Positions 3,354 to 38,052 of a DNA stretch of 64,000 bases are shown piece by piece. The notes beneath the pieces are model-generated. The model did no database searches and was not told the DNA's origin. It saw only the letters and a list, made by a program, of their open reading frames with translations. Every line of letters starts with the position of its first letter. Within the stretch, counting starts at the first letter, position 1. Position numbers and translations under genes: made by a program. This stretch comes from a virus (lineage: Duplodnaviria > Caudoviricetes). The DNA lies in the IMG/VR virus record IMGVR_UViG_3300032233_002382, positions 32,001-96,000 of that record, one strand, 5' to 3'.

Positions 3354-3815
3354 ATGACCCCATCTGAACTGTCAGCTGCACTTCGCAAAATCGCCGCTAA
3401 GATCGACGCCTCTAAGAATCCGTCCCGAGAGCTCGTTATTTCAGACATCCAAAGAGTAGCTTCGAGACTGGTTACAGCGGCTTGGCAACCCCACAAAGCT
3501 AAGAATGTAGAAGAAGTAGACATGAGTAAGCTCCCAAGGCAGCTTTTAACCGGTACCACCATGGGAGACATAGTTCGTGGTGTTCTAAAGCACATGAAGG
3601 ACGAACAGCCTGTTAGAATGTCTCTTTCGGGCAAGGGTCCTCTTGGGACTGACATTTCAGTCGACATCGACGACGGTCAGATCACCATTAAGGTGCTTAA
3701 AGCTGAAAAGGATATGAAAGCTCCGACGGATGATTCGGTAGCTTTATCAGCTTCCATGCCTCTCAAGGATTGGGTCAAGGAAAATAAAGCCGCTATCGAA
3801 AAAGAAAAGCGGTAG
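3354..3815 (+). CDS. protein with long conserved N-terminal leader (putative virion protein)
   Basis: MTPSELSAALRKIAAKIDASKNPSRELVISD leader; AAGGAG SD. Confidence 0.75.
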   Translation: MTPSELSAALRKIAAKIDASKNPSRELVISDIQRVASRLVTAAWQPHKAKNVEEVDMSKLPRQLLTGTTMGDIVRGVLKHMKDEQPVRMSLSGKGPLGTDISVDIDDGQITIKVLKAEKDMKAPTDDSVALSASMPLKDWVKENKAAIEKEKR

Positions 3816-3837
3816 TTCACAAAACGTTCTACTAACT

Positions 3838-3871
3838 TTTGGGCCGCCTAGGGTAACCTAGGCGGCCCAAA
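3838..3871. terminator. inverted repeat / terminator
   Basis: tttgggccgcctagg-gtaa-cctaggcggcccaaa. Confidence 0.7.
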
Positions 3872-3989
3872 TCGTATTTATGGTGCATAATCAAGTTCAA
3901 AGTGCGATCGGAGATCGGCTGGCCACGGCGTCATGTGGATGGGACGGCGCCAGCCGCATTTAGCGGCGGCCGCTCCCTTGGAGCCGACC

Positions 3990-4421
3990 ATGACCCGCAA
4001 CAATCTCTCCACCCTCAACGACACCATGGCGGTGCTCTGCGAGGCGATCCCGCCCATCGTGGCTCAGCCGCCCCTCTATCCCTTCATCGGGGTCAAGGCC
4101 GTCAAGGCCCGCCTCGAGGCGGATCTGGTGGTCCAGCACGCCACCCTGGCGATGCTCTACCACCTGCAGACGGGTGATGAGCAGCAGGCCAGGGACACCC
4201 ACCACAAGAACCGTGCTGGCTTCATGAGCAGTGATGCGTTCACGGGCACCCGGTTGGCTGAGAAGCTGATTCTTGGTCTCGAGCTGGAGCCGGATGAGCT
4301 CGAGCGGGCCTCCCGCATTGCAACCAAGTACTCCAAGCAGCTCTCCATCCAGCTGCGGCGGGTGGCGATGCAGGAGAACCCCATGCTGGCGAGCTACGCC
4401 GTCACTTTCAGCATCAAGTAG
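3990..4421 (+). CDS. conserved phage hypothetical protein
   Basis: LAMLYHLQTGDEQ...NRAGF..SDA pattern resembles a recurrent phage domain; SD before MTRNN. Confidence 0.65.
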   Translation: MTRNNLSTLNDTMAVLCEAIPPIVAQPPLYPFIGVKAVKARLEADLVVQHATLAMLYHLQTGDEQQARDTHHKNRAGFMSSDAFTGTRLAEKLILGLELEPDELERASRIATKYSKQLSIQLRRVAMQENPMLASYAVTFSIK

Positions 4422-4433
4422 TCTGGGCTGAAG

Positions 4434-4463
4434 ACCCCGGCTCCCCTCGAGGGGAGCCGGGGT
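4434..4463. repeat. perfect 30-bp palindrome
   Basis: accccggctcccctc|gaggggagccggggt directly after a stop codon. Confidence 0.85.
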
Positions 4464-4554
4464 TCGGCTTAATGTGGATCTGTTTTGAAATAAATCGGAA
4501 ATCGGGCGCGGCTCTCGTCCTGCTTGTGCGGCGCGGTGCCGCAAGGAGTCGACC

Positions 4555-4890
4555 ATGGGACTGGAACTGAATTTGCCTGAGGACTACAAGCTTTCTGCGG
4601 GAGAGATCGACAATATCGTCTACTTGACGTGCAAGTATGCTGTTGACTGGCCTATGCGTCAGGTGGACCTCTTTGTTTGCAAGATGATGGCGGGTCTCGA
4701 TAAGCCAGATGCCCCGACCGGTTCGAAGGCGGTAGAGAAACTGCTTGAAGTAACCTGCGATTATCTGTGGGACCATGTGTGCGGTGAGCCCGATGACTTC
4801 ACCGCAAAGAGTCTCGTTGAGCACATGGAGCCTGCACTAACCCAGTGGTATCAGAACAGCACTCCGGAAGAGCGTGCCAAGACAGAATAA
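4555..4890 (+). CDS. hypothetical protein
   Basis: ORF after motif copy, AAGGAG SD. Confidence 0.75.
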   Translation: MGLELNLPEDYKLSAGEIDNIVYLTCKYAVDWPMRQVDLFVCKMMAGLDKPDAPTGSKAVEKLLEVTCDYLWDHVCGEPDDFTAKSLVEHMEPALTQWYQNSTPEERAKTE

Positions 4891-4900
4891 TGTAATTTCG

Positions 4901-4930
4901 AGGGCCCTGGGAGAATTCTCCCAGGGCCCT
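4901..4930. repeat. perfect 30-bp palindrome
   Basis: agggccctgggagaa|ttctcccagggccct; related to the 40651-40684 hairpin. Confidence 0.85.
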
Positions 4931-4941
4931 AGGGGTGTTTC

Positions 4942-5403
4942 GTGGGCGATAACAGGTATCGAAGTAAGGATCCGGCTTTGAATGATGTCCGATTTCGAAT
5001 CACAGAAGAGATCCGCAAGAATATTGAGGCCACGATCCGAGAAGAGATTGGTCGGCAGGTTAACCGTCAGATCACCCCTCTGCTTAAAGGGGATCTGAAT
5101 GGGATCGTCGTCAGGTACGTGGAAGAGGCCGCAAAGGGGCATGTCGGTGCCGTTCTCGGCATCAATTCCAAAGGTAGGACGAACGATCTGTTTAAGCATC
5201 TTGTTAAGGCAGTTGCGTCAGATCCAGACTTCGCCACAAACATGCGTCAGTTTGTTTTAGGAGAGATGAACCAACTGGTGGAGAGGCACTGGGCGAATGC
5301 ATATAAGAATGGTCTCGCAATGAAGATGAGGAAGATGCTTCGAGATACCTGGCGGGAGATGATTGTGCGGGAGATTCAGGAAGAACCTGGAGATGACAAT
5401 TAA
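4942..5403 (+). CDS. hypothetical helical protein
   Basis: ORF 153 aa. Confidence 0.7.
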   Translation: MGDNRYRSKDPALNDVRFRITEEIRKNIEATIREEIGRQVNRQITPLLKGDLNGIVVRYVEEAAKGHVGAVLGINSKGRTNDLFKHLVKAVASDPDFATNMRQFVLGEMNQLVERHWANAYKNGLAMKMRKMLRDTWREMIVREIQEEPGDDN

Positions 5404-5492
5404 ATGAGTCCGGGAATCGGCCGCGCCGCGCGTCCTCTTTGTGGGCGCGCGGGCGGGCGCGTCCGACCCAAATTCCGCCCAGGAGCCGACCA

Positions 5493-6176
5493 ATGAGCTG
5501 CATGATCAAGATCGACGGTGTGAAGAAGACCAGCACCCAGAAGGCCCGTGGGTATCGCGGCAACACCCATCGCCCCTGGAACGACCAGCACCGCTCGGTG
5601 GAAGATCTCCTCGGTGTGGGATTCTCGTGCTACACCACCCCTATCATTGAGCACCTGAAGATCTGCAAGGAGTGCAATCTGAATCGGGTCATGTGGTTGC
5701 TCGAGAAGGAGAGCGTGTCCGCAAACTCCCACTCGGAGCGGATCGCAAGGACCTTCTTCGACGACCCCCGGACCACCCGCAAGCAGGCGACCAATACCTT
5801 GGTCAAGCTCCAGGGTTTGAATAGCCTCTTCTGGCTCGGAACCAAGCTTTCGAAGGAGGAATTCTTCGAGGCCATCCGGATGGCCTACCTCAAGGCGGCA
5901 ATGGATTCGGCAAGCTACCGGCAGCTCCCCCTGTTCAAGACGGTGATCCCTCGCAGCGCGCGGGTCGCTTGGGATGCCACCCGTCCGAACGCGGAGGTCG
6001 CGCTCCAGGGCCCTCACCCGTTCGGGCCGGATCGTTCACGATACACCAAAATGTCCGTTGAGAATCGGGAGCTTCTCACGAAGGCGGCCACTCTGATCAA
6101 CGCCAAGATGACGTTCCCGAATACCATGGATGAGCTCGAGCGCACCGCCATCGTCCATAAGATCCAGACTAGCTAG
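5493..6176 (+). CDS. hypothetical protein with C-terminal tag (VHKIQTS)
   Basis: AGGAG SD before ATG 5493; motif copy upstream. Confidence 0.75.
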   Translation: MSCMIKIDGVKKTSTQKARGYRGNTHRPWNDQHRSVEDLLGVGFSCYTTPIIEHLKICKECNLNRVMWLLEKESVSANSHSERIARTFFDDPRTTRKQATNTLVKLQGLNSLFWLGTKLSKEEFFEAIRMAYLKAAMDSASYRQLPLFKTVIPRSARVAWDATRPNAEVALQGPHPFGPDRSRYTKMSVENRELLTKAATLINAKMTFPNTMDELERTAIVHKIQTS

Positions 6177-6285
6177 TCTGAAATGGATGCCTGGTCCCCT
6201 CAATGAGGGGACCAGGCATGGTCCGTAAATCCAACATGGAAGTCGTCTGTCTCCCTCGTTCTCTCTGTGGGCGCGTGGTGCGTCC

Positions 6286-6636
6286 GTGGGGTGTATTATG
6301 CGGATATGTGTCGAGTGTGGCGGGGATTTTGACCCGAAGTCCCCTCAGAAGAAGGCGGTCGGTGGTCTTATTACCCAGTGCCCCGAGTGTTCTGAGGAGG
6401 TCGTGGCTAAGCACGCAGGTGTTACTGCGGGTGATGGTAAGCAGGCTGGAGTCCAGGTATTGGCTTTCGAATCCCCTCAGGCACGCGAAGGATTCCTGAG
6501 TTATTGGAAGGCAGCCACCGGCCTATATACTGGAAAGCAGTGCCAGATGGGTCGAGGCCAACCGAATTCGCCGAAGATGGAATTCCGTAAAGTAACCGAG
6601 CACGGTGTCGGAATGAATCATAAGGGGAAGTCATGA
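6286..6636 (+). CDS. zinc-ribbon protein
   Basis: CVEC...CPEC. Confidence 0.7.
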   Translation: MGCIMRICVECGGDFDPKSPQKKAVGGLITQCPECSEEVVAKHAGVTAGDGKQAGVQVLAFESPQAREGFLSYWKAATGLYTGKQCQMGRGQPNSPKMEFRKVTEHGVGMNHKGKS

Positions 6637-6863
6637 TATCGCGCAATCAGTTCGTTGGTCTCATGGTTGTTCTTTTCTCGTTGCTCTTTTTGGTTCTGGG
6701 TGTTCGGGTGTGCCACGATTCTGGTGCCACCTCATCCAGCGCGGTCTGCCAGGAGGCCTGCTATCCAAATCCGGTAGATCGGGTATCTGGTAGACAGTGC
6801 TTTTGTCAGGCAACCATTACAATTAAGGAGATTCCAAATGAAGAGGTTCCTCGTAGTCGATGA
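6633..6863 (+). CDS. membrane-anchored Cys-rich small protein
   Basis: N-terminal hydrophobic helix plus C..C...CFC. Confidence 0.6.
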   Translation: MISRNQFVGLMVVLFSLLFLVLGVRVCHDSGATSSSAVCQEACYPNPVDRVSGRQCFCQATITIKEIPNEEVPRSR

Positions 6864-7209
6864 TATGCAGGTGAGGCACGACGAATTTGACCGGATTCTG
6901 GCAGGGAATCAGGTGATCCATACTTGGAATGTGATGCAGGCATTTCTTCAGATCCGAGAAGACTTCAGGGATGAGAAGAAGTTCGACACTATCTTTCTTG
7001 ATCACGACATTGAGGAAGGAGACGACAGGCGAGATGTGATCGAACTTGTACACTGGATTGTCAAGACGCCTTGGGTTCGTGACCAGCTTAAGAAGGATGG
7101 GACGAATTTCTTCATCCACAGCTGGAATAATCATGGGGCGCAGAACATGAAGGCGCTTCTCGAGGATGCCGGATTCGAAGTAAAAGTGAAGCCGTTTAGG
7201 GTGGGATAA
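6838..7209 (+). CDS. receiver-like domain protein (cyclic-phosphate-processing REC type)
   Basis: LVVDD, IFLDHDI, IHSWNNHGAQNM motifs. Confidence 0.75.
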   Translation: MKRFLVVDDMQVRHDEFDRILAGNQVIHTWNVMQAFLQIREDFRDEKKFDTIFLDHDIEEGDDRRDVIELVHWIVKTPWVRDQLKKDGTNFFIHSWNNHGAQNMKALLEDAGFEVKVKPFRVG

Positions 7210-7996
7210 GCAAGTGGTCGAAGTCGAAGAATTTATCCCTGAAGTCTGCTTTATACCAGCGTGGGCTGAAACCAAGGTGGGTTTCAGCCCACGCCCATAA
7301 CATGACTTCGAGATGAAGTCTGGGATACAGAGACTGGAACGCTTGTCTGTGGAAGTTGTAAAATGATATGAGATCGTGTAGATGCCCTGTGAAGAACCCA
7401 CCTAAGAATCTCCAATATAATGTTTCGATGTCAGATGTAGGGGATTCTTCCCATCCAGGAATCACTAAACCACATCCCAAGTGATGGAGTTTATTTAGCT
7501 GTGCCAGCGTCTGCGGATGATGTTTCAGGATATGCATTATACCGAAATCGATCCAAGATAATCGTTCATCCGGCACTAATTTCATCGCCCGAACCATGAA
7601 TTCGGTCTTGGCGTTCGTGATGAGGTAGTAGTCTTCGGGCGGATCGGAAATTCGACGTTCCGGTCGTTTAACTTGTGAGCGGACGAACTGGTAAGTCCAT
7701 AGGTCTTGTATGGTAAGATAAACGACGCGGACGTTTGGATAGTTTACTCGACCTTCTAACGACTTGTCTAGAAATAAGATGATCGGAATTTCAGTTGCCG
7801 CAAGAGAATCGAATTCCGCCAAATATTCATCGACAGTCTTTTTAGACGACCCGTCTTCATAACATATGAAGGCCGACACGAACATAAACCACGTTACCTG
7901 GAGAAATAAGTGAAGCCCGCAGACATGACCCTTTTTGGTGGAAACTCGGTTCATCGGATTCTGGACGCATTGGCGTACGAACTGGGTGAGCATCAC
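7196..7996 (-). CDS. HtrL/YibB-family putative glycosyltransferase (start likely MFVSAF)
   Basis: FVSAF, NAKTEF, WIDFGI, WRFLGGFFTG; paralogous to 60178-61724. Confidence 0.75.
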   Translation of the reverse strand: MMLTQFVRQCVQNPMNRVSTKKGHVCGLHLFLQVTWFMFVSAFICYEDGSSKKTVDEYLAEFDSLAATEIPIILFLDKSLEGRVNYPNVRVVYLTIQDLWTYQFVRSQVKRPERRISDPPEDYYLITNAKTEFMVRAMKLVPDERLSWIDFGIMHILKHHPQTLAQLNKLHHLGCGLVIPGWEESPTSDIETLYWRFLGGFFTGHLHDLISFYNFHRQAFQSLYPRLHLEVMLWAWAETHLGFSPRWYKADFRDKFFDFDHLLIPP

Positions 7997-8266
7997 GATG
8001 TCGAAACCAAGTGGTTGTGGAATCTGTCGGAGCCCTACACATGCGGTTGGAAGATCGATCCAGACAGCCTTTTGGCTGAGAACCTGTTCAAGGTATTTCC
8101 GAAGCCTGGATTGAGTCAGTTCGAAGAGCCTGAGGATTTCGAATCCCTTGATGTGGATGCGAAGTTTGCTTGGCAGATGAAGAGAATTCTCGAATCAACC
8201 GGCTATCAATTTGCTTATGAATCCGGTCTCCTCCGTGGTCTCCCCCTCGGGGTCGAGCCTCGATGA
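7910..8266 (+). CDS. hypothetical protein
   Basis: ORF coupled to deaminase gene. Confidence 0.6.
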   Translation: MKPADMTLFGGNSVHRILDALAYELGEHHDVETKWLWNLSEPYTCGWKIDPDSLLAENLFKVFPKPGLSQFEEPEDFESLDVDAKFAWQMKRILESTGYQFAYESGLLRGLPLGVEPR

Positions 8267-8604
8267 ATCCATATAAGTATTTCGAGATCGCCGCGAAGTT
8301 CGCTGTTCTTAAGGAAGATCAACGGGTCCACCGCCTGGGTGCGGTCGGTGTCCGACGCGATGGCGTTCTGGTCGGTGCTTATAACTCGCCTGCGCCCGAC
8401 AAGCTACCGAAGGCGCACGCGGAAGCACGGCTCGCCCGTAAGCTCGACAAGGGCGCTACCGTATTCGTTGCTCGCGTTGCTAAGTCCGGAATACGACTCG
8501 CTCGACCTTGCGCATCCTGTCAGGCTTTCCTGAAGGCGGCAGAGGTCGAGCGAGTTTATTACACGATTTCTGAGACTGAGTACGGAGTTATCGACCTCGT
8601 GTAG
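8263..8604 (+). CDS. cytidine/dCMP deaminase-fold zinc protein
   Basis: HAE...RPCASC signature. Confidence 0.85.
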   Translation: MNPYKYFEIAAKFAVLKEDQRVHRLGAVGVRRDGVLVGAYNSPAPDKLPKAHAEARLARKLDKGATVFVARVAKSGIRLARPCASCQAFLKAAEVERVYYTISETEYGVIDLV

Positions 8605-8606
8605 TA

Positions 8607-9374
8607 CTAAAGACCGTGAGTAATGAGACCGTTCTCAACGGTAAGGATGTCGTGAACTTCATGACCTTCCCGAGTGGCCACGGCCTCCACAGCCATCGTG
8701 AAAGCATCGATTGGTCTTAAACTATTAAATTCATCCGGACTAAACATCTGAGCACTTTCCGGCGGATCGAACGTCTGTCTTGACCCACCACGTCCGGCTG
8801 ACACCACACTGACTCTAGTCTTCATTCCTCCACAGTCGATCGTACCTTCCACGTTGCTCGCACTTTTTTCGCCCAGGAAATCACACCTGTGGAGAGTTAT
8901 AGTGCATGAAGGACCGAGCTCAGTCGGTCCTATATCGACAGGCTTATTTAAGACGTTGACTTGCCCACCGACAGCAGCTACCAATTTCCTAATATCCTTC
9001 AAAACTAATTCTTTCGAGGGACTCTTAGATTTTTCGATCCCCGCCGCGATGCGGCGGAGTTCCTGACTAAGATCTGACGGTTTCATTCGACTGGCCTTTC
9101 TGGGTTTTTGTGAACCCTTGAGAAATGTTCCGACGAGTTTCGCGATCTCACCGAAGTGCTTATCGCTGAGCTTCTGCTTCTCGATTCCGGAAAGGACGCG
9201 ACCGTAGTGGGCGGCCTTCTGCATTATCGAGTCGTCCATCGGGACCGTGACGCCGCCCTTCTCGATCGCTCCGAGCGCCCCACATAACATCGCGTGCTCT
9301 CTGGATTTCGGGTCCTCGGCGGCTTCTGCGACTCGCTTCGGGTCGCTAAGTTCAGATAAGGATGGCTTCGACAT
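8607..9374 (-). CDS. protein with internal copy of the long leader
   Basis: Internal MKPSDLSQELRRIAAGIEKSKSPSKELVLKD at about aa 97. Confidence 0.7.
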   Translation of the reverse strand: MSKPSLSELSDPKRVAEAAEDPKSREHAMLCGALGAIEKGGVTVPMDDSIMQKAAHYGRVLSGIEKQKLSDKHFGEIAKLVGTFLKGSQKPRKASRMKPSDLSQELRRIAAGIEKSKSPSKELVLKDIRKLVAAVGGQVNVLNKPVDIGPTELGPSCTITLHRCDFLGEKSASNVEGTIDCGGMKTRVSVVSAGRGGSRQTFDPPESAQMFSPDEFNSLRPIDAFTMAVEAVATREGHEVHDILTVENGLITHGL

Positions 9375-9377
9375 ACT

Positions 9378-9415
9378 TTTAGGCCTCCAACGACGTCTGT
9401 CATTGGAGGCCTAAA
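9378..9415. terminator. inverted repeat
   Basis: tttaggcctccaa / ttggaggcctaaa. Confidence 0.6.
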
Positions 9416-9416
9416 T

Positions 9417-10184: not shown

Positions 10185-10197
10185 CCGGAGCCTCCAT

Positions 10198-10458
10198 ATG
10201 GAGAAACAATTAAAGATGTCTTACGGCGATCACCGGATGGTGGCTACCAAAACATTTGATCCCATGGCCGCAAATTTAACGATTCATCTTCATTGTGAAT
10301 CATGCAATAGTCACATCCAGTCGCGATATACCGAGTTTGAACAAGTCCTGAACCCTTCATTTTACGAAGACTTCTTCGAAAGCGCTTGCCGAATATTTCG
10401 AAAAACATTTCCTGAATCGTGTGATGAAACTAAAGTCAAACAAGTTCACGATTCTTGA
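10198..10458 (+). CDS. Zn-binding miniprotein with C-terminal tag
   Basis: CESC...CDETKVKQVHDS. Confidence 0.65.
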   Translation: MEKQLKMSYGDHRMVATKTFDPMAANLTIHLHCESCNSHIQSRYTEFEQVLNPSFYEDFFESACRIFRKTFPESCDETKVKQVHDS

Positions 10459-10555
10459 TGTACGGCAGAAGTCTCCAAAATCCGGGAAGACGGAATTCGT
10501 TCGGGTCTGGCACATACTGACGAAGTACATGGCATAGATTCAATTTGTTTTCGAA

Positions 10556-11196: not shown

Positions 11197-11271
11197 GTAT
11201 CTTATCTGAGACCGATCTTTGAGTGTAATGCTCCTTCATGCGCTCCGAAAAAACTACACGCAGCTTAATAA

Positions 11272-11804: not shown

Positions 11805-11816
11805 TTCAAACAGTAC

Positions 11817-14014: not shown

Positions 14015-14028
14015 ACCCCAAAATACAA

Positions 14029-23621: not shown

Positions 23622-23698
23622 TGGTAGGTCCCCGGTGACTTGAACACCGAACCCCCTGATTATGAGTCAGGCGCTCTAACCTGTTGAGCTAGGGACCC
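23622..23698 (-). tRNA. tRNA with CAT anticodon (elongator Met or Ile2)
   Basis: GGGTCCC/GGGACCT acceptor, CCTGA-CTCATAA-TCAGG, GTTCAA T-loop, CCA; lacks initiator GGG/CCC stem. Confidence 0.92.
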
Positions 23699-28878: not shown

Positions 28879-29385
28879 ATGAAACCAACCGACCTATCGT
28901 CAGCTCTACGCCGCATCGCTTCGAAAATCGAAGCTTCAAAATCCCCAAGCCGAGAACTCGTACTCAAAGATTTGAATAGTTTGGTTCGGAAGATGGCTAT
29001 GGATGATGATTCTCAGGATGATAGTAGTCTTCCTACCGGCGTACATGAAGTCATATCTATGCCGAATGCCGAGTTCACTGTCACTATCGATTGTACGAGG
29101 GGGAGTTCTGGAGTCATAGGTGAGTGTACCATCCAGATACAATCTGAGTGGTCTGAAATCCCGTCTGTAGTTTCTGCTGTACAAAGTATTGATAGAGAAA
29201 TCAACAGTGCCACCACTGGTGAATATTGGGCTATGGTACCAGACAACTTGCCCAAGGCGGCTCGAAGCGCCACGGACGGTTGGATAACTGGATACCTTGT
29301 GTGGTGCTTAGAAAATGGGAAATTCGAAGGCCAACCTGATATCGGTCAGTTTATTTTCAAGTTTGACGTTCTTTTCGAAGGCTAA
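28879..29385 (+). CDS. protein with long conserved N-terminal leader
   Basis: MKPTDLSSALRRIASKIEASKSPSRELVLKD; GGAGG SD. Confidence 0.75.
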   Translation: MKPTDLSSALRRIASKIEASKSPSRELVLKDLNSLVRKMAMDDDSQDDSSLPTGVHEVISMPNAEFTVTIDCTRGSSGVIGECTIQIQSEWSEIPSVVSAVQSIDREINSATTGEYWAMVPDNLPKAARSATDGWITGYLVWCLENGKFEGQPDIGQFIFKFDVLFEG

Positions 29386-29463
29386 TAACCGGCTAGATGA
29401 CGATCATGATTCCATTCACGAATCATGAGCCAAACTAAGCGAACCAAAGAATCTTCGATGTAT

Positions 29464-29521
29464 AAAAAGCCGGAGTGATAAGCGCACCAGACTGAAACTG
29501 GGCTTATCACTCCGGCTTTTT
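29464..29521. terminator. 20-bp-stem bidirectional hairpin
   Basis: aaaaagccggagtgataagc / gcttatcactccggcttttt. Confidence 0.8.
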
Positions 29522-29539
29522 CTTTCCAGATCTTCATAT

Positions 29540-29617
29540 TGGCGCTCCTGGAGGGAGTCGAACCCCCGACCGTCGCCTTAGAAGGGCGCTGCTCGTATCC
29601 AGCTGAGCTACAGGAGC
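29540..29617 (-). tRNA. tRNA-Arg (TCT)
   Basis: GCTCCTG/CAGGAGC acceptor, CT-TCT-AA loop, GTTCGA, CCA. Confidence 0.93.
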
Positions 29618-29624
29618 AAATATC

Positions 29625-29792
29625 CCATCAGGTCCGGTCGGCGTTGCAGCGCCGCCCTTCGCATACTGCAATATACCGCGCTTTCTCAAAGGCGCGCCTG
29701 ATGGAAAACGAGTCCCTGCCGGTCAATTCCGGTAGATTCACGGTGTTCAGCACACCGCCATTCTTTTACCGCCCTTAGCGGGCAGTCCAGGG
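29625..29792 (-). ncRNA. candidate structured RNA(s) between tRNA-Lys and tRNA-Arg
   Basis: Two multibranch folds closed by CCCTG/CAGGG and CCATCAGG/CCTGATGG. Confidence 0.4.
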
Positions 29793-29795
29793 AAA

Positions 29796-29871
29796 TGGTG
29801 AGGACGGTGGGGTACGATCCCACAACCAACGGCTTAAAAGGCCATTGCTCTACCAATTGAGCTACGTCCCC
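29796..29871 (-). tRNA. tRNA-Lys (TTT)
   Basis: GGGGACG/CGTCCTC acceptor, CT-TTT-AA, CCA. Confidence 0.92.
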
Positions 29872-29899
29872 GAAATCTGACTGATTTTACATTTAAAGT

Positions 29900-30192
29900 G
29901 TCGGCTCGCCCCATAACCCGACCGAATTGCCGAGTATTTTCCACCCGCTGCCGACCGATCCGCCTGAGGAAAGACGAACCCCCTGTGATTACGATTTTAG
30001 GAGTGGTAAATCGCGTGCGGCTCACCGCAAGCCGTTTTTATTTCTTGTTGGCTCGCCCCGTCGGGATTCCACTCCCGAACACCGCCGCTACCAACTTGTG
30101 CTTCCTGGAAAGGTTTAACAGGAAGCTTTGCCCCTGTGATCCGCTGAGAGGCGGTAGATGAATTCGCCTTCAGCTTGCGCTCACGCTCGCGT
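29900..30192 (-). ncRNA. candidate tandem-duplicated structured ncRNA
   Basis: Two units sharing ATCACAGGGG, GTYGGYAGCGG, GGGGCGAGCCRAC with a covarying stem; motif copy at 30216 upstream. Confidence 0.5.
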
Positions 30193-30222
30193 TTGCTTGA
30201 CGTTCGATTGTCGAGATTTCCG

Positions 30223-30489
30223 CTATCGCTTAGGCTTAATAGTCCCGATGATAGGCGATTCATCCTCGGTAGACCAGAGGGCATTCAGGGCTCTTTCCAG
30301 AGCCCTGGGATCTTCCATGACTTCTGACACGACTGCAACATTAGGGATGTCGAGCAAAAGTTCTTCATTGATTGGACCTGAATAAACGGGCTCGTTTCCA
30401 AGCGTAACGCGGAATTCTTTAGAAGCTGGAATTTTGATCTTCATGGCGACCTCATCTGGAGCGGGAGACGGGATTCGAACCCGCGACAT
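30223..30489 (-). CDS. hypothetical protein (start likely MKIKIP)
   Basis: 5' part of track ORF overlaps tRNA-Gly; GAGG SD before MKIK. Confidence 0.6.
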   Translation of the reverse strand: MSRVRIPSPAPDEVAMKIKIPASKEFRVTLGNEPVYSGPINEELLLDIPNVAVVSEVMEDPRALERALNALWSTEDESPIIGTIKPKR

Positions 30490-30532
30490 TCAGCTTGGAA
30501 GGCTGACGCTCTACCAACTGAGCTACTCCCGC
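30457..30532 (-). tRNA. tRNA-Gly (TCC)
   Basis: GCGGGAG/CTCCCGC, CT-TCC-AA, GTTCGAAT, TCCA. Confidence 0.95.
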
Positions 30533-30533
30533 A

Positions 30534-30620
30534 TGGTGGTTGGGGTTGGATTTGAACCAACGAAAGTCATTGACTGGCTGATTTACAGTCAGCTCCCTTT
30601 GGCCGCTCGGGCACCCAACC
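30534..30620 (-). tRNA. tRNA-Tyr (GTA)
   Basis: GGTTGGG/CCCAACC, CT-GTA-AA, long variable arm, CCA. Confidence 0.94.
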
Positions 30621-31040
30621 TTAAATATCTACTAGACCAGCGTGATGCTCAGCATGACAGTTATGGCAAAGCAAAGCACACTTATCTATTTCTTCTTTTA
30701 TTATTTCCCATCTTCTCGTTCGACCATCGTTCAATCCAAACGATTTTTGGGATTTGTCTTTATGGTGGAAGGTTAGTGCTGCTAACGATTTAGAATACCC
30801 ACAAATTTCACATTTCCCGCCTTTGTATTCTACTGATTTCCTCTTCATCTCTTGTCGATAAGCTGTAACAAGAGCCATATTCTTTTGTTTCTTATCGAAT
30901 CCTGGCAGTCCGGGGCCTGACTTCTGGTTCTTAAAAGGGCTGCACTTGAAACACTTTGTTCGGTTTGAAAGGGAGTGAGTCTTACCTTCAATCGTAATCA
31001 ACTTGGGTATTTCACCACCACAGGATTTGCAGCTCTTCAT
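30621..31040 (-). mobile_element. free-standing HNH (His-Cys) endonuclease in tRNA cluster
   Basis: KGGKCEICGY....LTFHH.D...K.F.........EIDKCALLCHNCHAEHH. Confidence 0.85.
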
Positions 31041-31083
31041 AACAGGGGCACGTTAATAGAGCTCTATTAACGTGCCCCTGTTA
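31040..31083. repeat. perfect 44-bp palindrome abutting HNH start codon
   Basis: taacaggggcacgttaatagag|ctctattaacgtgcccctgtta. Confidence 0.9.
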
Positions 31084-31085
31084 AT

Positions 31086-31161
31086 TGGCTCCTGGGGAGG
31101 GATTCGAACCCCCGACATGGCGGTTAACAGCCGCCCTCTCTGCCAGCTGAGATACCCAGGA
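31086..31161 (-). tRNA. tRNA-Asn (GTT)
   Basis: TCCTGGG/CCCAGGA, CT-GTT-AA, GCCA. Confidence 0.93.
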
Positions 31162-31193
31162 GTGAAACTATCCAGGAGCGAACTAACTACACT

Positions 31194-31595
31194 TTACCAC
31201 GGCTCGTCTTCATAGAGATCGAAGAACGTGTTTTCGTAATCGTGACCGTCGTCGTGTTTTACGCTGCGCCGTGCTGTCGGCTCTTTCCGCATTCGCGCCG
31301 CGCCGCCGTCGACCGGCTCGGCCTCGATCGGTGCGACGGGCGCGGCCTTCTTGCGCTTTCGCGTCTTCGGCGTGTGCGGTCCGTGCGGTCCGTCGCGCAT
31401 CGGGAATTCGGTGATTCCGCCACACCAACAGCATTTATTCCCATGGAAACAGTGGGTATCATCCCGATCAAACCACCCTAGTCCACGCTTCTCATTGTCG
31501 ATCGATCTTTCCATACAATGATCAGGTCCCAAATTCGGCATGAATTTCCCTATTAAAAGAATGCCGCTTGTAGGAATTCGGCGCAGCGGCGGCAC
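31194..31595 (-). CDS. hypothetical protein (start likely MPNLG)
   Basis: HC...CCWC motif; GC-rich central patch. Confidence 0.55.
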   Translation of the reverse strand: MPPLRRIPTSGILLIGKFMPNLGPDHCMERSIDNEKRGLGWFDRDDTHCFHGNKCCWCGGITEFPMRDGPHGPHTPKTRKRKKAAPVAPIEAEPVDGGAARMRKEPTARRSVKHDDGHDYENTFFDLYEDEPW

Positions 31596-31649
31596 CGGAA
31601 TTGGGCATCCTACTTACCCGTATTGATAGAAATTACCGGACTCATAATT

Positions 31650-31970
31650 TCATTCTTCGGGAGGAATCGGCTTTAGTTCCAGGGGTGGACGGCGTTTATA
31701 CTTCCGAACCCAGAAGAATGGGGTAGTCTCAAGATCTGGGCCATCGAAATGATCCCACTTTATTATTCCAGCAGGCACGTTCCCATAACGTCTTGGCTTT
31801 GAACCGGGTATCGGTGCAAATTCCTTTGTAACTGTAACAACGGTGCCCTTCTTATTGATATCTAATTCGAGATAAACTCGATCTCCTACTTTGATATCAT
31901 CACCTAAATAAGGTTCCGAGGAGATACGAACCGCAATATTGTTGATGTCGATCATATGATCACCCCTCAT
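31650..31970 (-). CDS. SH3/KOW-like protein with short leader
   Basis: MIDINNIAVRISS then IKVGDRV...KKGTVV. Confidence 0.6.
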   Translation of the reverse strand: MRGDHMIDINNIAVRISSEPYLGDDIKVGDRVYLELDINKKGTVVTVTKEFAPIPGSKPRRYGNVPAGIIKWDHFDGPDLETTPFFWVRKYKRRPPLELKPIPPEE

Positions 31971-31990
31971 CCAGGCGATCTATTAAAAAT

Positions 31991-32077
31991 TGGTAGGGAT
32001 GGCCGGACTCGAACCGGCACGGCTGATAAGGCCGGGAGATTTTAAGTCTCCTGTGTCTACCGTTCCACCACACCCCC
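31991..32077 (-). tRNA. tRNA-Leu (TAA)
   Basis: GGAGA-CTTAAAA-TCTCC, long variable arm, ACCA. Confidence 0.93.
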
Positions 32078-32089
32078 AAACCGACCGCG

Positions 32090-32365
32090 CTCACCACTCG
32101 GTTTTATTGGTAACCGAGAAACAACGTGCGCCAAGCCCGCCAGTCGATTTTTAGATGGAATCGACAAACCACTTCGGGCGACGTGGAGTTAAACCACGCA
32201 AGCACTTTTGGATGACCGTACACTTGCAGTACGGACTGCTTATGAGAGCGCCGCTACCCGCCCGAAAGAAAAGGCCCGAAGCTCGTTCCCGCTTTCGCTT
32301 CGGGCAACCCTCACTGCTTTAGGGAAGAGGGCTTTTGGAGGAGCCGACTTTGGGTCGGTTACCCC
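32090..32365 (-). ncRNA. candidate multi-hairpin structured RNA upstream of tRNA-Leu
   Basis: At least 7 stems, including a 9-bp and an 8-bp long-range stem; no convincing ORF. Confidence 0.4.
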
Positions 32366-32398
32366 TTTAGACCGGATGGGGGGGGTACCCGGTCTAAA
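32366..32398 (-). terminator. hairpin after 32399-32818
   Basis: tttagaccgg / ccggtctaaa. Confidence 0.6.
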
Positions 32399-32818
32399 CT
32401 AATTCGTATCGTCCGTGTCGTCATCTTCATCCGGCTCAGACTTCATGCACGAATCGCAGTACTCGTGGTCGGAGCCGAGATGATTCTGGCAGCTCGGGCT
32501 GATGCAGAAACCGGCTGCCTTCTTTGCAGACTTCACCCGATCGGTTTCGATGGCCGCTGCCATTGAAGTCGGGTGGGCAAGCCACATAGCGCGCTCGATC
32601 AGCACGATCTCGTTCGCCAAAATGATGGGAGGCGCGTTCAGGTCAATGAACCGCTTCAAGCGGGCCACTCGCTGCTCCAGCTTATATTCCCCTGCGAGCT
32701 TAACCTCATCGAGAATCCCATTGTCATTCAAGTCGCTCATCATCTCTCCGTGGCGCGGGCTTGATTGCCCGCTACATAAACGTGCGGCGGCTCCGATTTC
32801 CGCTTTCCATTCGAACAA
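32399..32818 (-). CDS. hypothetical protein (start likely MMSDL)
   Basis: C-terminal C...C..H....YCDSC plus acidic tail. Confidence 0.65.
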   Translation of the reverse strand: MFEWKAEIGAAARLCSGQSSPRHGEMMSDLNDNGILDEVKLAGEYKLEQRVARLKRFIDLNAPPIILANEIVLIERAMWLAHPTSMAAAIETDRVKSAKKAAGFCISPSCQNHLGSDHEYCDSCMKSEPDEDDDTDDTN

Positions 32819-32820
32819 AA

Positions 32821-32910
32821 TGGCAGAGGGTGAGAGATTCGAACTCTCGAAACGGTTTCCCGTTTACACGCGTTCCAGGCGTGCTCCTTCAGCCGCTCGG
32901 ACAACCCTCT
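32821..32910 (-). tRNA. tRNA-Ser (GGA)
   Basis: AGAGGGT/ACCCTCT, CT-GGA-AC, long variable arm, GCCA. Confidence 0.93.
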
Positions 32911-32953
32911 GCAAGACTAGGTTTTCAAAGATTCAGTAGTTCTACTTTACACT

Positions 32954-33039
32954 TGGTGCCTAAGGACGGACTCGAACCGTCACGACGTTGCCGTCGGGAG
33001 ATTTTGAGTCTCCTGTGTCTACCGTTCCACCACTCAGGC
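32954..33039 (-). tRNA. tRNA-Leu (CAA)
   Basis: GCCTGAG/CTTAGGC, CT-CAA-AA, long variable arm, ACCA. Confidence 0.93.
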
Positions 33040-33153
33040 CAAAAAGAAGAGGGAGGGCGGCGCACCCAGCTTGGAGCCGACCAAGGCATGGGCCGGATGC
33101 GCCGACCTCCCACCAACTATACGAGCGGGCGCGTCGACTTCCGCGCCTCTTTG

Positions 33154-33405
33154 TCAGTGATACTGATCTGGGGTGTTCGGGACCATATGACCCGCAAGAG
33201 CCGCAGAAGAAATACCCTTTGCGATCGCGTTGATCATATGCGGATCTTCGTCGCCCAACTTCCAAGTCTTTGCATAATCATAAAGAGCAGCAACAACAGC
33301 TCCAGCCTCTTCGGCGGAGAGGCTCGAAAGAATTTCCTGAGCTCGGGTCTTCTCTACATTGGCCTGATGATCGTGCTTATGGTGGCTGTGCATTATTACC
33401 TCCAA
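33154..33405 (-). CDS. hypothetical protein
   Basis: ORF in minus-strand run. Confidence 0.6.
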   Translation of the reverse strand: MEVIMHSHHKHDHQANVEKTRAQEILSSLSAEEAGAVVAALYDYAKTWKLGDEDPHMINAIAKGISSAALAGHMVPNTPDQYH

Positions 33406-33424
33406 TATTATATTACATTTAAGG

Positions 33425-33610
33425 TTACGGGATCTCGGGGACGAAGACCCAAGCTTTAACGTACGTTCCGCCGGTCACTTCCACGAACGAATCTCGTTGC
33501 CAGTCTGCACTCTTATTGAGCTCGTCCACTTCCACAAAGTCTTCGATCTTGTTTTTGCGAATGATATCCTGGGCCTTCGAGATCATCTTCTCTGCGGTCT
33601 CAATGTCCAT
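33425..33610 (-). CDS. hypothetical protein
   Basis: ORF, AGGA SD. Confidence 0.6.
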   Translation of the reverse strand: MDIETAEKMISKAQDIIRKNKIEDFVEVDELNKSADWQRDSFVEVTGGTYVKAWVFVPEIP

Positions 33611-33618
33611 GATCCATC

Positions 33619-33900
33619 CTAATTAATGAAAAGTCTCGCCTTAGCAGATTCTTTCTTATATCTCTCAACATTCTCTACTAGGTGTCGCCAAACCACGTAG
33701 CTCTCGCCGATCTCGTGCTTTAGTGCTAACGCCATCATTGCAGCAATTTCCGCATTCTCTTCGCTCATGATGGTCGTATTCTCAGTAATTTCAACTGAAT
33801 CGCGATTTTTAACGCACCCGACGATCTTCTTACCGTTCTGAAGCGCGATCGTTACGATCTCATCATTTCCTTCATTTGTAACATTTAAATCGGCTAACAT
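33619..33900 (-). CDS. hypothetical protein
   Basis: ORF, GGAGG SD. Confidence 0.65.
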   Translation of the reverse strand: MLADLNVTNEGNDEIVTIALQNGKKIVGCVKNRDSVEITENTTIMSEENAEIAAMMALALKHEIGESYVVWRHLVENVERYKKESAKARLFIN

Positions 33901-33945
33901 GAGATCCTCCTACCTACAATGTAACCCAGCTGAACGAACGGTCAA

Positions 33946-34398
33946 TTATGCGGACATCATGTCATTCACGATCCCGACGCCGCAGTTAGGGTCAATTTCC
34001 CCTTCCTTCAACGCCTCATTAATCGTCTGTTCCTCTTGAACGTGCACAGCCTTTAAACAACGCTTGCATTTGAAAATATAAGGCTCGCCGTTGAACAGCT
34101 TCTCTCGATGCATCTTCCAGTCATGCTCCTGGATATCACCGGAAGTCGGATTATACCGGCGGAGCATTTCCTTCTGAACGTCTACTCCTTCGGCCGCAAG
34201 AGCCTGGTCGATCATAGCAGCGAAGGGATCTTGAGGTTTCGGGATCTCTTCCGGATTCGGCGCAGACGGAGTATCGAACTCATCTTCAGGATCCTCTGGA
34301 AGCGGGGCTGCACCGTTCGGAGCCGAAAAATCTCGTACTGGCTCTTCCTTCTTTTCTTCGATACCTAGTGCTTTATCGAGCTGGTCAAGAAATGACAT
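33946..34398 (-). CDS. acidic protein ending in an HxW-CxxC-C zinc finger plus tag
   Basis: EHDW...FKCKRC...CGVGIVNDMMSA. Confidence 0.75.
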   Translation of the reverse strand: MSFLDQLDKALGIEEKKEEPVRDFSAPNGAAPLPEDPEDEFDTPSAPNPEEIPKPQDPFAAMIDQALAAEGVDVQKEMLRRYNPTSGDIQEHDWKMHREKLFNGEPYIFKCKRCLKAVHVQEEQTINEALKEGEIDPNCGVGIVNDMMSA

Positions 34399-34471
34399 TT
34401 AGCCTCCGCAGACGGACGCGCCGCCCAGACGAGCGACGGGCGGCGCGTCCGGTTTCCGATTTACTTCATAA

Positions 34472-35107
34472 TTACTCTTCCATGACCATTCCGGCGAGTA
34501 CCATCCCAAAACCATCCTTAACGTCCTGGTCCGTCAGCTCAGGCTTATTCAGGAGCTCCTTCTGGATTTTCTTCCAGAGACGCTCTCCGCCCCAAGTATT
34601 CGCCTTCGCCCACCTCTGGTGTTCCTCAGCAAGTTTTTCGATCGAATCAATGTCTCCAAGGAAGGTGTGCGGGGTCGGCTTTACGATAGTGCGTCCGCCA
34701 TAAGCCTGAGGATTCTTGAGCTGGAACTGATAGTGGTTTTCTTCGGACTGGTTCTTTAGGTCGATTTCCTCTCGGAGGCGATTGATTCGAATCGCCACCA
34801 TCTTAGCAAGAGTCTTCTGTGTGACTTTGCCCTTGATCTTAGGCTGGGCATTTTCGATGAGGGGCCTTACTTCGTGTATTGGTTTACGGAAATAGGCAAG
34901 CGCTTGCGGAATCTTCACGAAAGTCAAGTAAAAATCTGACTCAATGGCGCCGTCGGCGTCAGCTTCCTTCCAAGTCCGGATGATAACGTCCGAATCGCCA
35001 GTCACTCGGACCTGATCCGAACTTGCCTTAATGTCAGCTCGTGCGCCTTGGTCACACTTAGCGATCGCCAGGGCATCCAACTGCGGATCGTGGTAGATTG
35101 GCATCAA
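34472..35107 (-). CDS. hypothetical protein with tag (AGMVMEE)
   Basis: Motif copy upstream. Confidence 0.75.
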   Translation of the reverse strand: MMPIYHDPQLDALAIAKCDQGARADIKASSDQVRVTGDSDVIIRTWKEADADGAIESDFYLTFVKIPQALAYFRKPIHEVRPLIENAQPKIKGKVTQKTLAKMVAIRINRLREEIDLKNQSEENHYQFQLKNPQAYGGRTIVKPTPHTFLGDIDSIEKLAEEHQRWAKANTWGGERLWKKIQKELLNKPELTDQDVKDGFGMVLAGMVMEE

Positions 35108-35169
35108 GCCTCCGTGCGCGGGAATCGCGCACCAACAAAACGGACAAGGCGCCCGACTTCCGATATGCT

Positions 35170-35511
35170 TTAGGCAGAACTCACGACGTAAACTGACTCT
35201 TCCATGTAAGACACGTTATTGAGGATGTTTTCCTGGGCATTACTTACTTTGTGCTTAACCGCTTCAATGAGAGCGCATCCAATTGCCATTGAGAGACTCT
35301 CGAATGCACCGAGGTCTTCGTGGTCCATCTCCCATCCTGTGTCGTCATCATAGTACCCGTTGATTTGCGAGACCACCCATTTCTCGTCCACACGATCAAT
35401 GTCGAGGCCGTCGACTTCAAGGTGGTTAGCGTCAACGACCTTGATCTCGGAATTCGGAAATCGCTTCGTGAAAACGTCGATCGCTTCGGTTTCATCAGTG
35501 TTCATTGGCAT
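35170..35511 (-). CDS. hypothetical protein (start about MPMNTDE; track ORF extends through promoters)
   Basis: AGGAG SD and motif copy at 35527-35559. Confidence 0.65.
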   Translation of the reverse strand: MPMNTDETEAIDVFTKRFPNSEIKVVDANHLEVDGLDIDRVDEKWVVSQINGYYDDDTGWEMDHEDLGAFESLSMAIGCALIEAVKHKVSNAQENILNNVSYMEESVYVVSSA

Positions 35512-35688
35512 CTCCTGGTAAGTCGACCACATTATCAACGAGGGAAGCGGCCGATTTCCGACATTCTTCAAAGTAAATACGGAAATCGGAGAGGTCGTCG
35601 CGTCTCTTTGGTGGATCAACCAAATCTCTAATCTAAAGAGCGCTGGAAGTGCGGCGCTGTTGCCGTCCTGTTGCCGGAGGTGCCACAT

Positions 35689-36315
35689 ATGGGGAAGTCG
35701 AGTTTTGAGAAGATTACTGACGCGCTTTACGAAACGGGCGAGTTCAAGTCGCTCATGATTGAGATAAAGGAACGAATCCAGTCGACCAAGATTACGCATT
35801 ATGCCGGTGCGTGCAATTCATATGACCCGAAGGCTACGCTGATGGTTCATATGGAGACCGAGTACTGCGGCAAGAAGAATGAGGCTGCCAGCAACGTCGG
35901 TAACATGAAGACGAATCCGTTCTGGACGATCTCCCGTGATCTATACCTGCCAGACTCATTCAAGGCGATTTTTAACGCGAATTTCGGTGTACTGAAGCCG
36001 AACTCGACAAAGAAATATCGCGTCCCGACATACAACGTGAAGCGAGACAAGGCGTACGAACACTTTGCATCCAATGCAAGGGGCAAAATTGCGGTTGAAT
36101 TCGACACGATGATTAAGGATAAGTCGAGTCAGATTCGAAACCAGGCACTTGAGTTCGACACGACTCCCATGGCGGATCAGATTAAGCAGGACACTCGAGA
36201 TCGGTTCACGATCGACTCGATTAAGGAGACTCTACTCCGCTTCAAGGACGCCAGGCCTGAGATCTTGAAGGCTGCCATGGATGAGTTCGTGTGTCATGCT
36301 ATCATGGAAAACTAG
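35689..36315 (+). CDS. hypothetical protein with tag (CHAIMEN)
   Basis: Two tandem motif copies, GGAGG SD. Confidence 0.75.
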   Translation: MGKSSFEKITDALYETGEFKSLMIEIKERIQSTKITHYAGACNSYDPKATLMVHMETEYCGKKNEAASNVGNMKTNPFWTISRDLYLPDSFKAIFNANFGVLKPNSTKKYRVPTYNVKRDKAYEHFASNARGKIAVEFDTMIKDKSSQIRNQALEFDTTPMADQIKQDTRDRFTIDSIKETLLRFKDARPEILKAAMDEFVCHAIMEN

Positions 36316-36482
36316 TTCGGCAAGGAGTGGCTTACCCGCAATAGGGCGGATAATCCACTGTAAGTTGATAGGACTCCCATCCCACGCAAAGAGCGCCGGA
36401 AGTCGAGGCGGCGGCGCGTCGGTTGGGTGGGCGGCGCGGTGGGTGGTCCACGGCGGTCCGACCCCTTGAGGAGCGAGTAATC

Positions 36483-37583
36483 ATGCTGACTGGCATCGTT
36501 GAGATCCCGAACGACACGTACATGGACGTCCTGCGATTCAATATCCGCACGGGCGGCAATATGCTCGCCTTCGGCCAGGCCGGTATCGGCAAGACCGAGA
36601 TGGCCCAGCAGGCGGCGGTTAATGAGGGATTCGGGGTCTGCTACCTGAACCTCTCCGTCCTCGAGGCCCCCGATCTTCTTGGCCTCCCCCTCATCACCGA
36701 CGACAAGAGCGTGGATTACGCCCGACCGCGCTTCCTCCCGATCGAGGGGAAGGTCGACAAGCCGGTGGTCCTGCTCGTGGATGAGCTGGATAAGGCCAAG
36801 CCCGAGCTTCAGAATCCCCTCCTCGAGCTGTTCCAGAGCCACTCGCTCAACGGCACCAAGCTGGCGATCCAGGCCATCATCGCCACGGGTAACCTCCCCG
36901 ACGAGGGTGCCCACTCGCAGCCGGTCTCCCATGCCCTCACGAACCGGTGCAAGGTCTACAAGCTGGTGAGCGCCTTCGAGCCTTGGCGTCAGTGGGCGCA
37001 GGATTCGAATCTGAACGCATTCATCATCGGCTTCCTGAGCAAGAATCAGGAGTTCCTGAGCCGTCCTCCGGTCGAGGGTGACCCCACGGCTTACTGCCGA
37101 CCCTCTCCTCGCGCGTGGTCCCAGGCTGCCCGTGAGCTGGACCAGACCACCACCAAGGATACGGTCGACTTCCAGACCCTCCTCGTCGCTGGTCGGGTGG
37201 GTAGTGAGGCCGCAGCCAAGTTCCGCGTCTGGCTGGAGCACTACCGCATCCTCGAGCCCATCATCGATCGTCTGGTGGCGGAGGGTACCCTGCCGAATAT
37301 GGGGGAGATGACCATCGACCGCCAGCTGGTCTGCGCGATTGGTGCTGCAAGCGCGGTGGCCCAGGAGTGCCGCAAGGACGTGAAGGATAAGGCGAAGCAT
37401 CAGGAGGCCGTGAACAAGACGGCTAAGAATGTCTTCACCTGGCTCCAGAAGCTCCCCTCCGAGTTCCAGATTGCCGCAGTGAAGAGCACTCTGAACATGG
37501 AGATCATCACGAAGTACCAGCTGACGAAGATCCCTGAGGTCATGAACACCTACCTCAGCGTCCGGAAGGCCATGAAGGACTAG
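36483..37583 (+). CDS. MoxR-like AAA+ ATPase
   Basis: GQAGIGKT Walker A, LLVDE Walker B, IIATGN, ALTNR. Confidence 0.9.
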   Translation: MLTGIVEIPNDTYMDVLRFNIRTGGNMLAFGQAGIGKTEMAQQAAVNEGFGVCYLNLSVLEAPDLLGLPLITDDKSVDYARPRFLPIEGKVDKPVVLLVDELDKAKPELQNPLLELFQSHSLNGTKLAIQAIIATGNLPDEGAHSQPVSHALTNRCKVYKLVSAFEPWRQWAQDSNLNAFIIGFLSKNQEFLSRPPVEGDPTAYCRPSPRAWSQAARELDQTTTKDTVDFQTLLVAGRVGSEAAAKFRVWLEHYRILEPIIDRLVAEGTLPNMGEMTIDRQLVCAIGAASAVAQECRKDVKDKAKHQEAVNKTAKNVFTWLQKLPSEFQIAAVKSTLNMEIITKYQLTKIPEVMNTYLSVRKAMKD

Positions 37584-37599
37584 ACCACCTGGTCCTTCG

Positions 37600-37717
37600 A
37601 CCCCACCCACCCCTCGACGAGGGGTGGGTGGGGTTTTTCGGATATCTAACGTACCTTGGCAAGGTGAGTTGCACATATGTTTAGGCCCCACCCAGGCGAT
37701 CCTGGGTGGGGCCTAAA
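37600..37717. terminator. two convergent hairpins
   Basis: accccacccacccctcg/cgaggggtgggtggggt plus T-run; tttaggccccacccagg/cctgggtggggcctaaa. Confidence 0.75.
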
Positions 37718-37734
37718 CAGTTTTTCAATACTGA

Positions 37735-38052
37735 CTATTCTTCGGAACCGCCGGACTCCTCAGAACCACCAGCCTTAACACGGCTTTCCATAGTCTTAAC
37801 GAGGTTCTCGAGTGCCTTCAGTCCCTGAGGTAGTTCCTTGAAAGCGTCAACCACTTCTTTTTCCTGACCCTGGAATTTGGGTCCTAGTATTTTCAATCGG
37901 GACATCTTCTGGTCAAGAGTCTCTTCCTTACCAGCAATCTTCGAAACGAGATTCTTTAGATCCCGAATAACGAGATCTTTCGAAGGACTCTTAGAGGCCT
38001 CGATAGTTGCCGCAATTCGCTTGAGTTCTCTAGATAGGTCTGACGGATTCAT
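37735..38052 (-). CDS. protein with long conserved N-terminal leader
   Basis: MNPSDLSRELKRIAATIEASKSPSKDLVIRD. Confidence 0.75.
   Translation of the reverse strand: MNPSDLSRELKRIAATIEASKSPSKDLVIRDLKNLVSKIAGKEETLDQKMSRLKILGPKFQGQEKEVVDAFKELPQGLKALENLVKTMESRVKAGGSEESGGSEE

Follow-up and report, generated by a model that had tools for sequence, protein, structure and literature searches.

Four otherwise unrelated proteins encoded in the analyzed window share a block of about 40 residues, hereafter called the module. The window is a stretch of 64,000 nucleotides, bases 32001-96000 of one 307,777-bp virus contig with a CheckV completeness of 72%. Judging from its positions in the proteins of this phage and of a large metagenomic family, the module functions N-terminally, internally, C-terminally and in tandem. 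It is probably a docking domain and, if so, there is about an even chance that its destination is the virion. Our favoured explanation, which we put forward tentatively, combines the two: the block would be a folded helical-hairpin docking domain on tethers, serving as a portable address tag of a huge-phage lineage and bound to a common multi-copy receptor, preferably in the virion. The module copies in the window, recognized with a profile hidden Markov model (HMM) or by alignment, and the other parts of the protein with the internal copy are located as follows.

3354..3473 (+): module, residues 1-40 of the 153-aa protein 3354-3815; HMM E-value 7e-22.
28879..28998 (+): module, residues 1-40 of the 168-aa protein 28879-29385, adjoining the tRNA array; HMM and alignment.
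37933..38052 (-): module, residues 1-40 of the 105-aa protein 37735-38052; HMM and alignment.
8967..9086 (-): internal module, residues 97-136 of the 255-aa protein 8607-9374, starting at Met97 with 9086 as its first base.
9087..9374 (-): conserved 96-aa N-domain before the module in the 8607-9374 family, with four predicted helices.
8607..8966 (-): linker and alpha/beta cargo of the 8607-9374 protein, from the predicted structure and homologue comparison.

The open reading frames (ORFs) and the common block named in a preliminary description of the window were confirmed; the block starts at 3354(+), 28879(+) and 38052(-) and, internally, at Met97 of 8607-9374(-). The four window modules form a gapless block of 39-40 residues with 47-60% identity. 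A first profile, the 45-column HMM of these four modules, was run against 5120 six-frame ORFs of the genome; it scored each window copy with E-values of 3e-27 to 4e-26 and recovered six copies outside the window, which makes ten in the genome. The additional copies from this profile search are the following.

Genome 28 kb: module copy.
Genome 216-220 kb: three divergent module copies on charged proteins of 331-401 aa.
Genome 262.5 kb: module copy directly after the major head protein gene.
Genome 282.4 kb: module copy at the upstream end of the head operon.

A good ribosome-binding site precedes every N-terminal module copy in the genome; in the 3354 gene, where the cargo stands behind the module, it is a good Shine-Dalgarno sequence, GGAG, 8 nt upstream. 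The seven canonical copies have a mean amino-acid identity of 53%, with identical codons at just 30% of conserved residues, which indicates old protein-level conservation and not a DNA repeat or recent exchange of DNA. Synonymous sites are saturated among the genomic copies; therefore, selection acts on the module peptide.

The ten-copy profile (alignment A1), searched against 1.84 billion representative metagenome proteins, matched 1036 clusters at E<=1e-3 and 235 clusters at E<=1e-10. Between four and eight module copies were found in each of five related genomes (complete relatives are 362-436 kb in length). A strict back-translated pattern gave 7 matches in IMG/VR, 3 of them on two contigs placed in the lineage by the portal search; applied to 185,579 prokaryote species genomes, it had a single chance match, which does not encode the module. 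The module had no PDB sequence match below an E-value of 0.3. Comparison of 149 modules with Pfam at E<=10 did not return E3_binding (PF02817), SAP (PF02037), RIIa (PF02197) or Dpy-30 (PF05186) among the 25 families listed; the four families outside this list can have no more than one member each. The family DUF7433, on which no literature was found, was matched by 24 of the 149 modules with a best E-value of 0.012, below the cut-off, and by none in this genome; it was dropped as helical noise. By sequence comparison, the profile HMM (alignments A1 and A4) thus describes a domain that is missing from Pfam.

The anatomy of the family was analyzed with 171 modules drawn from the best 151 proteins of the 1036 clusters. 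Information content is high in columns 1 to 39-40 and then falls to background. Positions P3, L10, I13, A14, I17, S20, P23 and V28 are near-invariant; R11, R25 and D31 are strongly conserved. AlphaFold2 predicted a helix at residues 3-19, a five-residue S-K-N-P-S turn and a second helix at residues 25-39 (two models). Each helix bears one hydrophobic stripe. One model, of a natural two-module protein, has a predicted local distance difference test score (pLDDT) of 77 and a predicted template modelling score (pTM) of 0.60. The other, of the 8607 protein, has the hairpin at residues 99-115 and 121-136, between a confident four-helix N-domain and the alpha/beta cargo, and the flanking linkers have pLDDT values of 30-57. 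The mean net charge of the module is about +3.4, ranging from -3 to +9.

The module begins at residue 1-3 in 135 of the best 151 proteins and later in the remaining 16; two modules are present in 20 proteins, and in 9 proteins a module ends at most 3 residues from the C-terminus. The share of two-module proteins in the whole family is probably lower, since the scores of their modules sum and the top-150 list is therefore biased toward them. Five proteins of 88-103 residues consist solely of a module, a Pro/Ala-rich linker and a second module, and P0004 has the order module-LRV repeats-module. The internal position of the module in the 8607 family is retained in six homologues. The first hairpin of the N-domain of this family looks like a degenerate module. 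Methionine at module position 1 is kept in 7 of the 7 members of the family, even though it is internal (residue 97), and the second modules of tandem proteins mostly lack it; an internal translation start producing a short isoform is possible in the 8607 family.

Cargo of at least 30 residues was found in 142 of the best 151 proteins, and it falls into 114 BLASTP groups; the median total length of the tagged proteins is 139 residues. Together with mosaic alignments, this identifies the block as the only element common to otherwise unrelated cargo proteins and bears out the view of the preliminary description that different cargo stands behind one leader. Recognisable cargo is rare: LRV/HEAT repeats, and pentapeptide repeats (PF00805) in two proteins of the related genome G005.

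L054:1010-1591 (+), G005: module with pentapeptide-repeat cargo; E-value 2.5e-35.
L058:1082-1972 (+), G005: module with pentapeptide-repeat cargo; E-value 1.6e-44.

The pentapeptide-repeat fold is that of DNA-mimic proteins such as Qnr and MfpA, and the identifiable cargo (pentapeptide repeats, LRV/HEAT repeats) looks effector-like. Three paralogues of G005 have the module and about 60 residues in common and diverge completely beyond them. In the 8607 family the N-domain and the module are constant, and the C-terminal parts are of three or four kinds; P0032 has the cargo of P0003 without the N-domain. Cargo of the 8607 type was also found in G005 behind an N-terminal module, encoded downstream of the major head protein gene. 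For the 28879 protein the sole homologue is P0002, with 86% identity in the module and 54% across just half of the protein. As far as these alignments indicate, cargo is exchanged behind a constant module front end. Of the other window proteins, the 153-aa protein 3354-3815 matched no Pfam family. The 105-aa protein 37735-38052 has a short, helical cargo with an acidic tail, and a search for its relatives returned none. A single Pfam match among 150 cargos, Mu-like_Pro (E-value 7e-5), could not be traced to any member in two further scans and is given no weight.

In the favoured explanation, the module would be an independently folding hairpin of about 40 residues on tethers that are probably flexible, as suggested by the low-confidence linkers of one model. 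All copies would bind one common, multi-copy receptor, and the bivalent proteins (module-linker-module, module-repeat-module) would gain avidity on a lattice, a filament or a core. The preferred destination would be the assembling virion, at the prohead core or on the inside of the capsid, and the tagged proteins would be effectors that are packaged and may also be ejected, as with the T4 internal proteins. The prohead protease might remove the tag, of which the sequence gives no indication.

The link to the virion is drawn because 5 of the 10 copies are located inside or beside the head and tail gene clusters, with which they are co-oriented. The copy at 262.5 kb lies 57 nt after the strong terminator that follows the major head protein gene, and the three copies at 216-220 kb are located between the tail sheath gene and a gene of a virion structural protein. 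G005 also has a module gene downstream of the head protein gene, at a distance of about 1.8 kb. On another contig, a module-LRV-module gene is about 6 kb from neck and volactin genes.

Several observations weigh against the favoured explanation. The other 5 of the 10 copies are located among small early-looking genes and tRNAs. The module gene behind the major head protein gene is present only here and in the closest relative, G005, and more distant relatives lack it. No k-mer marks the upstream regions of the structural genes, and attempts to define a late-promoter motif failed, which leaves no basis for assigning the module genes to the late class. Fold searches of PDB with the two-module model, of AlphaFold clusters with the 8607 model and of the Atlas structures with the module returned only generic helical matches and are uninformative because a helical hairpin is too simple.

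The copies outside the structural clusters speak for a hub outside the virion, an explanation that we consider unlikely. Here the module would bind a host machine or a phage-built structure, e.g., an actin-like filament, and the cargo would be infection-stage effectors gathered at one site. Bivalent architectures suit a polymeric target, a volactin-type actin is encoded by the lineage, and the small-gene/tRNA region with half of the copies bears 32 promoter-like elements. These elements (position weight matrix score of at least 18 bits) are 42 nt long with the core TGGAAGTCGG-N-CGC-N-CCGCTCGT. All 32 are located at genome 14-80 kb (window 1-48000), on both strands, 12-52 nt before start codons. 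They are probably the promoter of one temporal gene class.

Window, upstream of 271, 4555, 5493, 41511, 42350, 44218 and 45261: example 42-nt elements.

However, the regional promoter serves none of the module genes of that region: of the 32 elements, 0 point at a module gene. The other half of the copies in the head and tail clusters also speaks against such a hub. The GGAAGT motif, which the preliminary description had reported as missing from the module genes, is the core of this element and is indeed missing there, which says little because most genes lack it too; a different expression class of the module genes is compatible with this, though it is no proof. Two other motifs upstream of module genes were rejected: ATGTGC, present before three of them, was not enriched, and the antisense TTTCC motifs were mostly part of the promoter elements of divergent neighbours. 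The preliminary description also regarded three of the module genes as singletons oriented against their neighbours. Of the four, 28879(+) alone is a true singleton: 3354 heads a block on the + strand, 8607 closes a block on the - strand, and 37735 follows a superoxide dismutase gene on the same strand. The latter gene (38089-38673, -), encoding an Fe/Mn enzyme with the DVWEHAYY signature, is immediately upstream of 37735-38052 and co-oriented with it.

Taken strictly, the capsid-targeting propeptide of the preliminary description would be an N-terminal block with affinity for the scaffolding core, released when the prohead protease cleaves at a basic-x-Ala site; in this form the reading is quite unlikely. 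Its general logic is supported. The T-even internal proteins have only their capsid-targeting sequence (CTS) in common (PMC3012670), and the T4 CTS is 10-20 residues long, strictly N-terminal, binds the prohead core and is removed by gp21 at a defined site (PMC7411985). Like the CTS of T4 IPI-III and Alt, the module is a common tag on unrelated, fast-evolving small proteins of a large myovirus, and a portable tag on fast-swapping cargo was found here as well. An N-terminal start at residue 1-3 in most of the best proteins, the hypervariable cargo and the prohead protease, which was sought and located in the genome (L005:3336-4889), all agree with a propeptide. In some subfamilies, helix 2 ends with a hydrophobic residue and Glu, loosely as in T4 and SPN3US (PMC7411985). 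The proposed N-terminal position and the cleavage site were not supported. Instead of a strictly N-terminal leader, modules at the extreme C-terminus (9 proteins), internal and tandem modules and the five module-only proteins of 88-103 aa were found; in these two-module proteins nothing would be left after cleavage. Rather than a peptide of 10-20 residues, the module is a 40-residue predicted hairpin of two helices between low-confidence linkers. The basic-x-Ala strings are present in the four window proteins, though out of register (columns 34-38 in one gene and 37-43 in the others), and across the 171 modules these columns correspond to the variable end of helix 2 and not to a conserved site. 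No residue past column 40 is conserved in the 171 modules, nor is an A/S/G-x-E cleavage motif, Glu standing at column 40 in only about 15% of modules and at column 42 in a similar share. The module also has no sequence similarity to the T4 CTS. It thus departs from the defining features of the latter in position and length and, since no conserved site follows it, apparently also in the cleavage site; as far as profile searches can tell, it matches no described family.

Propeptides of the phiKZ/SPN3US type were compared as well. Head proteins of these giant phages bear N-terminal extensions that are believed to direct them to the prohead; the extensions are 111-130 residues long, differ from one protein family to the next and terminate in an A-x-E motif (PMC7411985). 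Here, as there, a dedicated prohead protease is encoded. Unlike these propeptides, one 40-residue module is spread across unrelated proteins, and no such motif is conserved.

Self-association of the module, in which two hairpins would form a four-helix bundle dimerising any fused cargo without a separate receptor, is very unlikely. The one hydrophobic stripe on each helix is more than a lone hairpin needs, and the pTM of the two-module model suggests that hairpins pack together. A homodimer complex prediction with a score of 0.05, compared with a mark of 0.42, counts neither way. The RIIa and Dpy-30 domains, about 40 residues long and N-terminal, have a helix-turn-helix form with a conserved proline in the turn; they pair and then bind an amphipathic helix. 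The module resembles them in length, the two helices and the conserved turn proline; it differs in that it had no match to either family in Pfam and that pairing is hypothetical. Self-association leaves unexplained why one dimeriser is carried by more than 100 unrelated small proteins, whose shared tags would cross-pair, and the conserved polar and basic surface (R11, R12, K21, N22, R25 and D31) points to an external partner. A nucleic-acid tether like the helix-extension-helix (HeH)/SAP or Lsr2-type domains, holding cargo on phage DNA, would fit the positive mean charge, the two helices with an Arg pair in helix 1 and an Arg opening helix 2, and the two-module proteins, which could bridge DNA; it is most improbable, as SAP, HeH, HhH and Lsr2 are absent among the 25 Pfam families listed, the PDB search was likewise negative, the short turn has no glycine, in contrast to those motifs, and the charge of the module varies widely.

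Two known docking domains are similar to the module in kind. The scaffolding protein of P22 has a small basic C-terminal helix-loop-helix that docks electrostatically on the inside of the procapsid. The module is likewise a basic predicted two-helix hairpin; the P22 domain, however, belongs to one dedicated protein and is not a spread tag, and no sequence relation was seen, although no comparison was aimed at one. The peripheral subunit-binding domain of 2-oxo acid dehydrogenase E2 (PF02817) is autonomous, has 35-40 residues, docks with two helices, of which helix 1 is Arg-rich, and is flanked by Pro/Ala-rich linkers. Its size, two helices and tethers are comparable to those of the two-module mini-proteins; its loop is longer and Gly-rich, its helices are shorter, it belongs to a cellular metabolic protein, and it was not among the families listed for the module.

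A second, shorter tag, I-[AS]-x-[RK]-[IVL]-[AS] (typically RIASRIA), was found within the first 25 residues of 13 proteins, compared with 0.4 expected from shuffling.

Window 31650-31955(-), 52446-53372(+) and 54307-55005(+): RIASRIA-tagged genes.
Genome 11.3-13.7 kb, 233.1 kb, 246.2 kb, 257.8 kb and 279.9 kb: RIASRIA-tagged genes.

The profile of the short tag aligns to module columns 9-24 (helix 1) with an hhalign probability of 75%; some circularity is involved, since a regular expression had served to select the tags. In P0026 the short tag stands directly before two modules, and in G002 the gene after the head protein gene begins with it. The short tag and the 40-residue module may be related forms. 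Encapsulation peptides of bacterial microcompartments and encapsulin cargo-loading peptides are terminal single helices of about 10-20 residues that bring diverse cargo into a protein shell in cellular systems. As helical tags at either terminus with poorly conserved linkers, they are closer to the RIASRIA tag than to the module. The N-terminus of the superoxide dismutase encoded beside the 37735 gene, MIDYDFRIAA, has a loose likeness to the short tag.

A wider proposal, possible but doubtful, is that the 40-residue module and the RIASRIA tag are two forms of one protein-sorting code private to this lineage of 360-440-kb phages, by which a very large and constantly reshuffled set of small effectors would enter the capsid to be co-injected, or be brought to some other structure built by the phage. 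More than 1000 clusters carry the module. If true, this would be modular cargo delivery on a scale undescribed for any phage. Among the proteins of huge phages are hundreds of small ones without an assigned role, and one tag on many fast-evolving members would gather them into a single functional class. Should the tag lead to the capsid, it would list the packaged or injected effectors, including the DNA-mimic-like pentapeptide-repeat proteins. By analogy with the T4 CTS, which has been used in this way, the module could also bring foreign proteins into large capsids.

The head module of the phage genome, at 263-283 kb, includes genes for the protease, the portal, the large terminase and the major head protein (L005:153-1040), and its cluster also encodes proteins of 437, 228, 231, 162 and 781 aa; a tail sheath gene is present as well. 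Relatives were found via the portal, including the complete 362-436 kb genomes, which have terminal repeats. In the GenBank phage collection, neither a window protein nor a consensus-like module had a significant tblastn match; a cultured relative of this phage appears to be absent from that collection.

Nine tRNA genes (Met, Arg, Lys, Gly, Tyr, Asn, Leu x2 and Ser) were found in the window at 29540-33039(-) and 23622-23698(-), 8 of them in one array with small ORFs interspersed. Between 10198 and 28555(-), dozens of small zinc-ribbon-like proteins end with the motif [IV]-[HMQ]-x-[SEA] (...IHES, ...VHAS, ...IHKS), which no module protein carries. The head operon is punctuated by two strong hairpin terminators of one design (GAATCGGCCC...GGGCCGATTC followed by GTATTT).

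L001:1596-1633 (-), genome about 263.1 kb: terminator after the major head protein gene.
Genome about 267.9 kb: terminator upstream of the protease gene.

The major head protein itself (295 aa) is 92-94% identical across the relatives G001-G005, and the portal only 70-79%; the coat protein of this lineage is evidently under unusually strong constraint.

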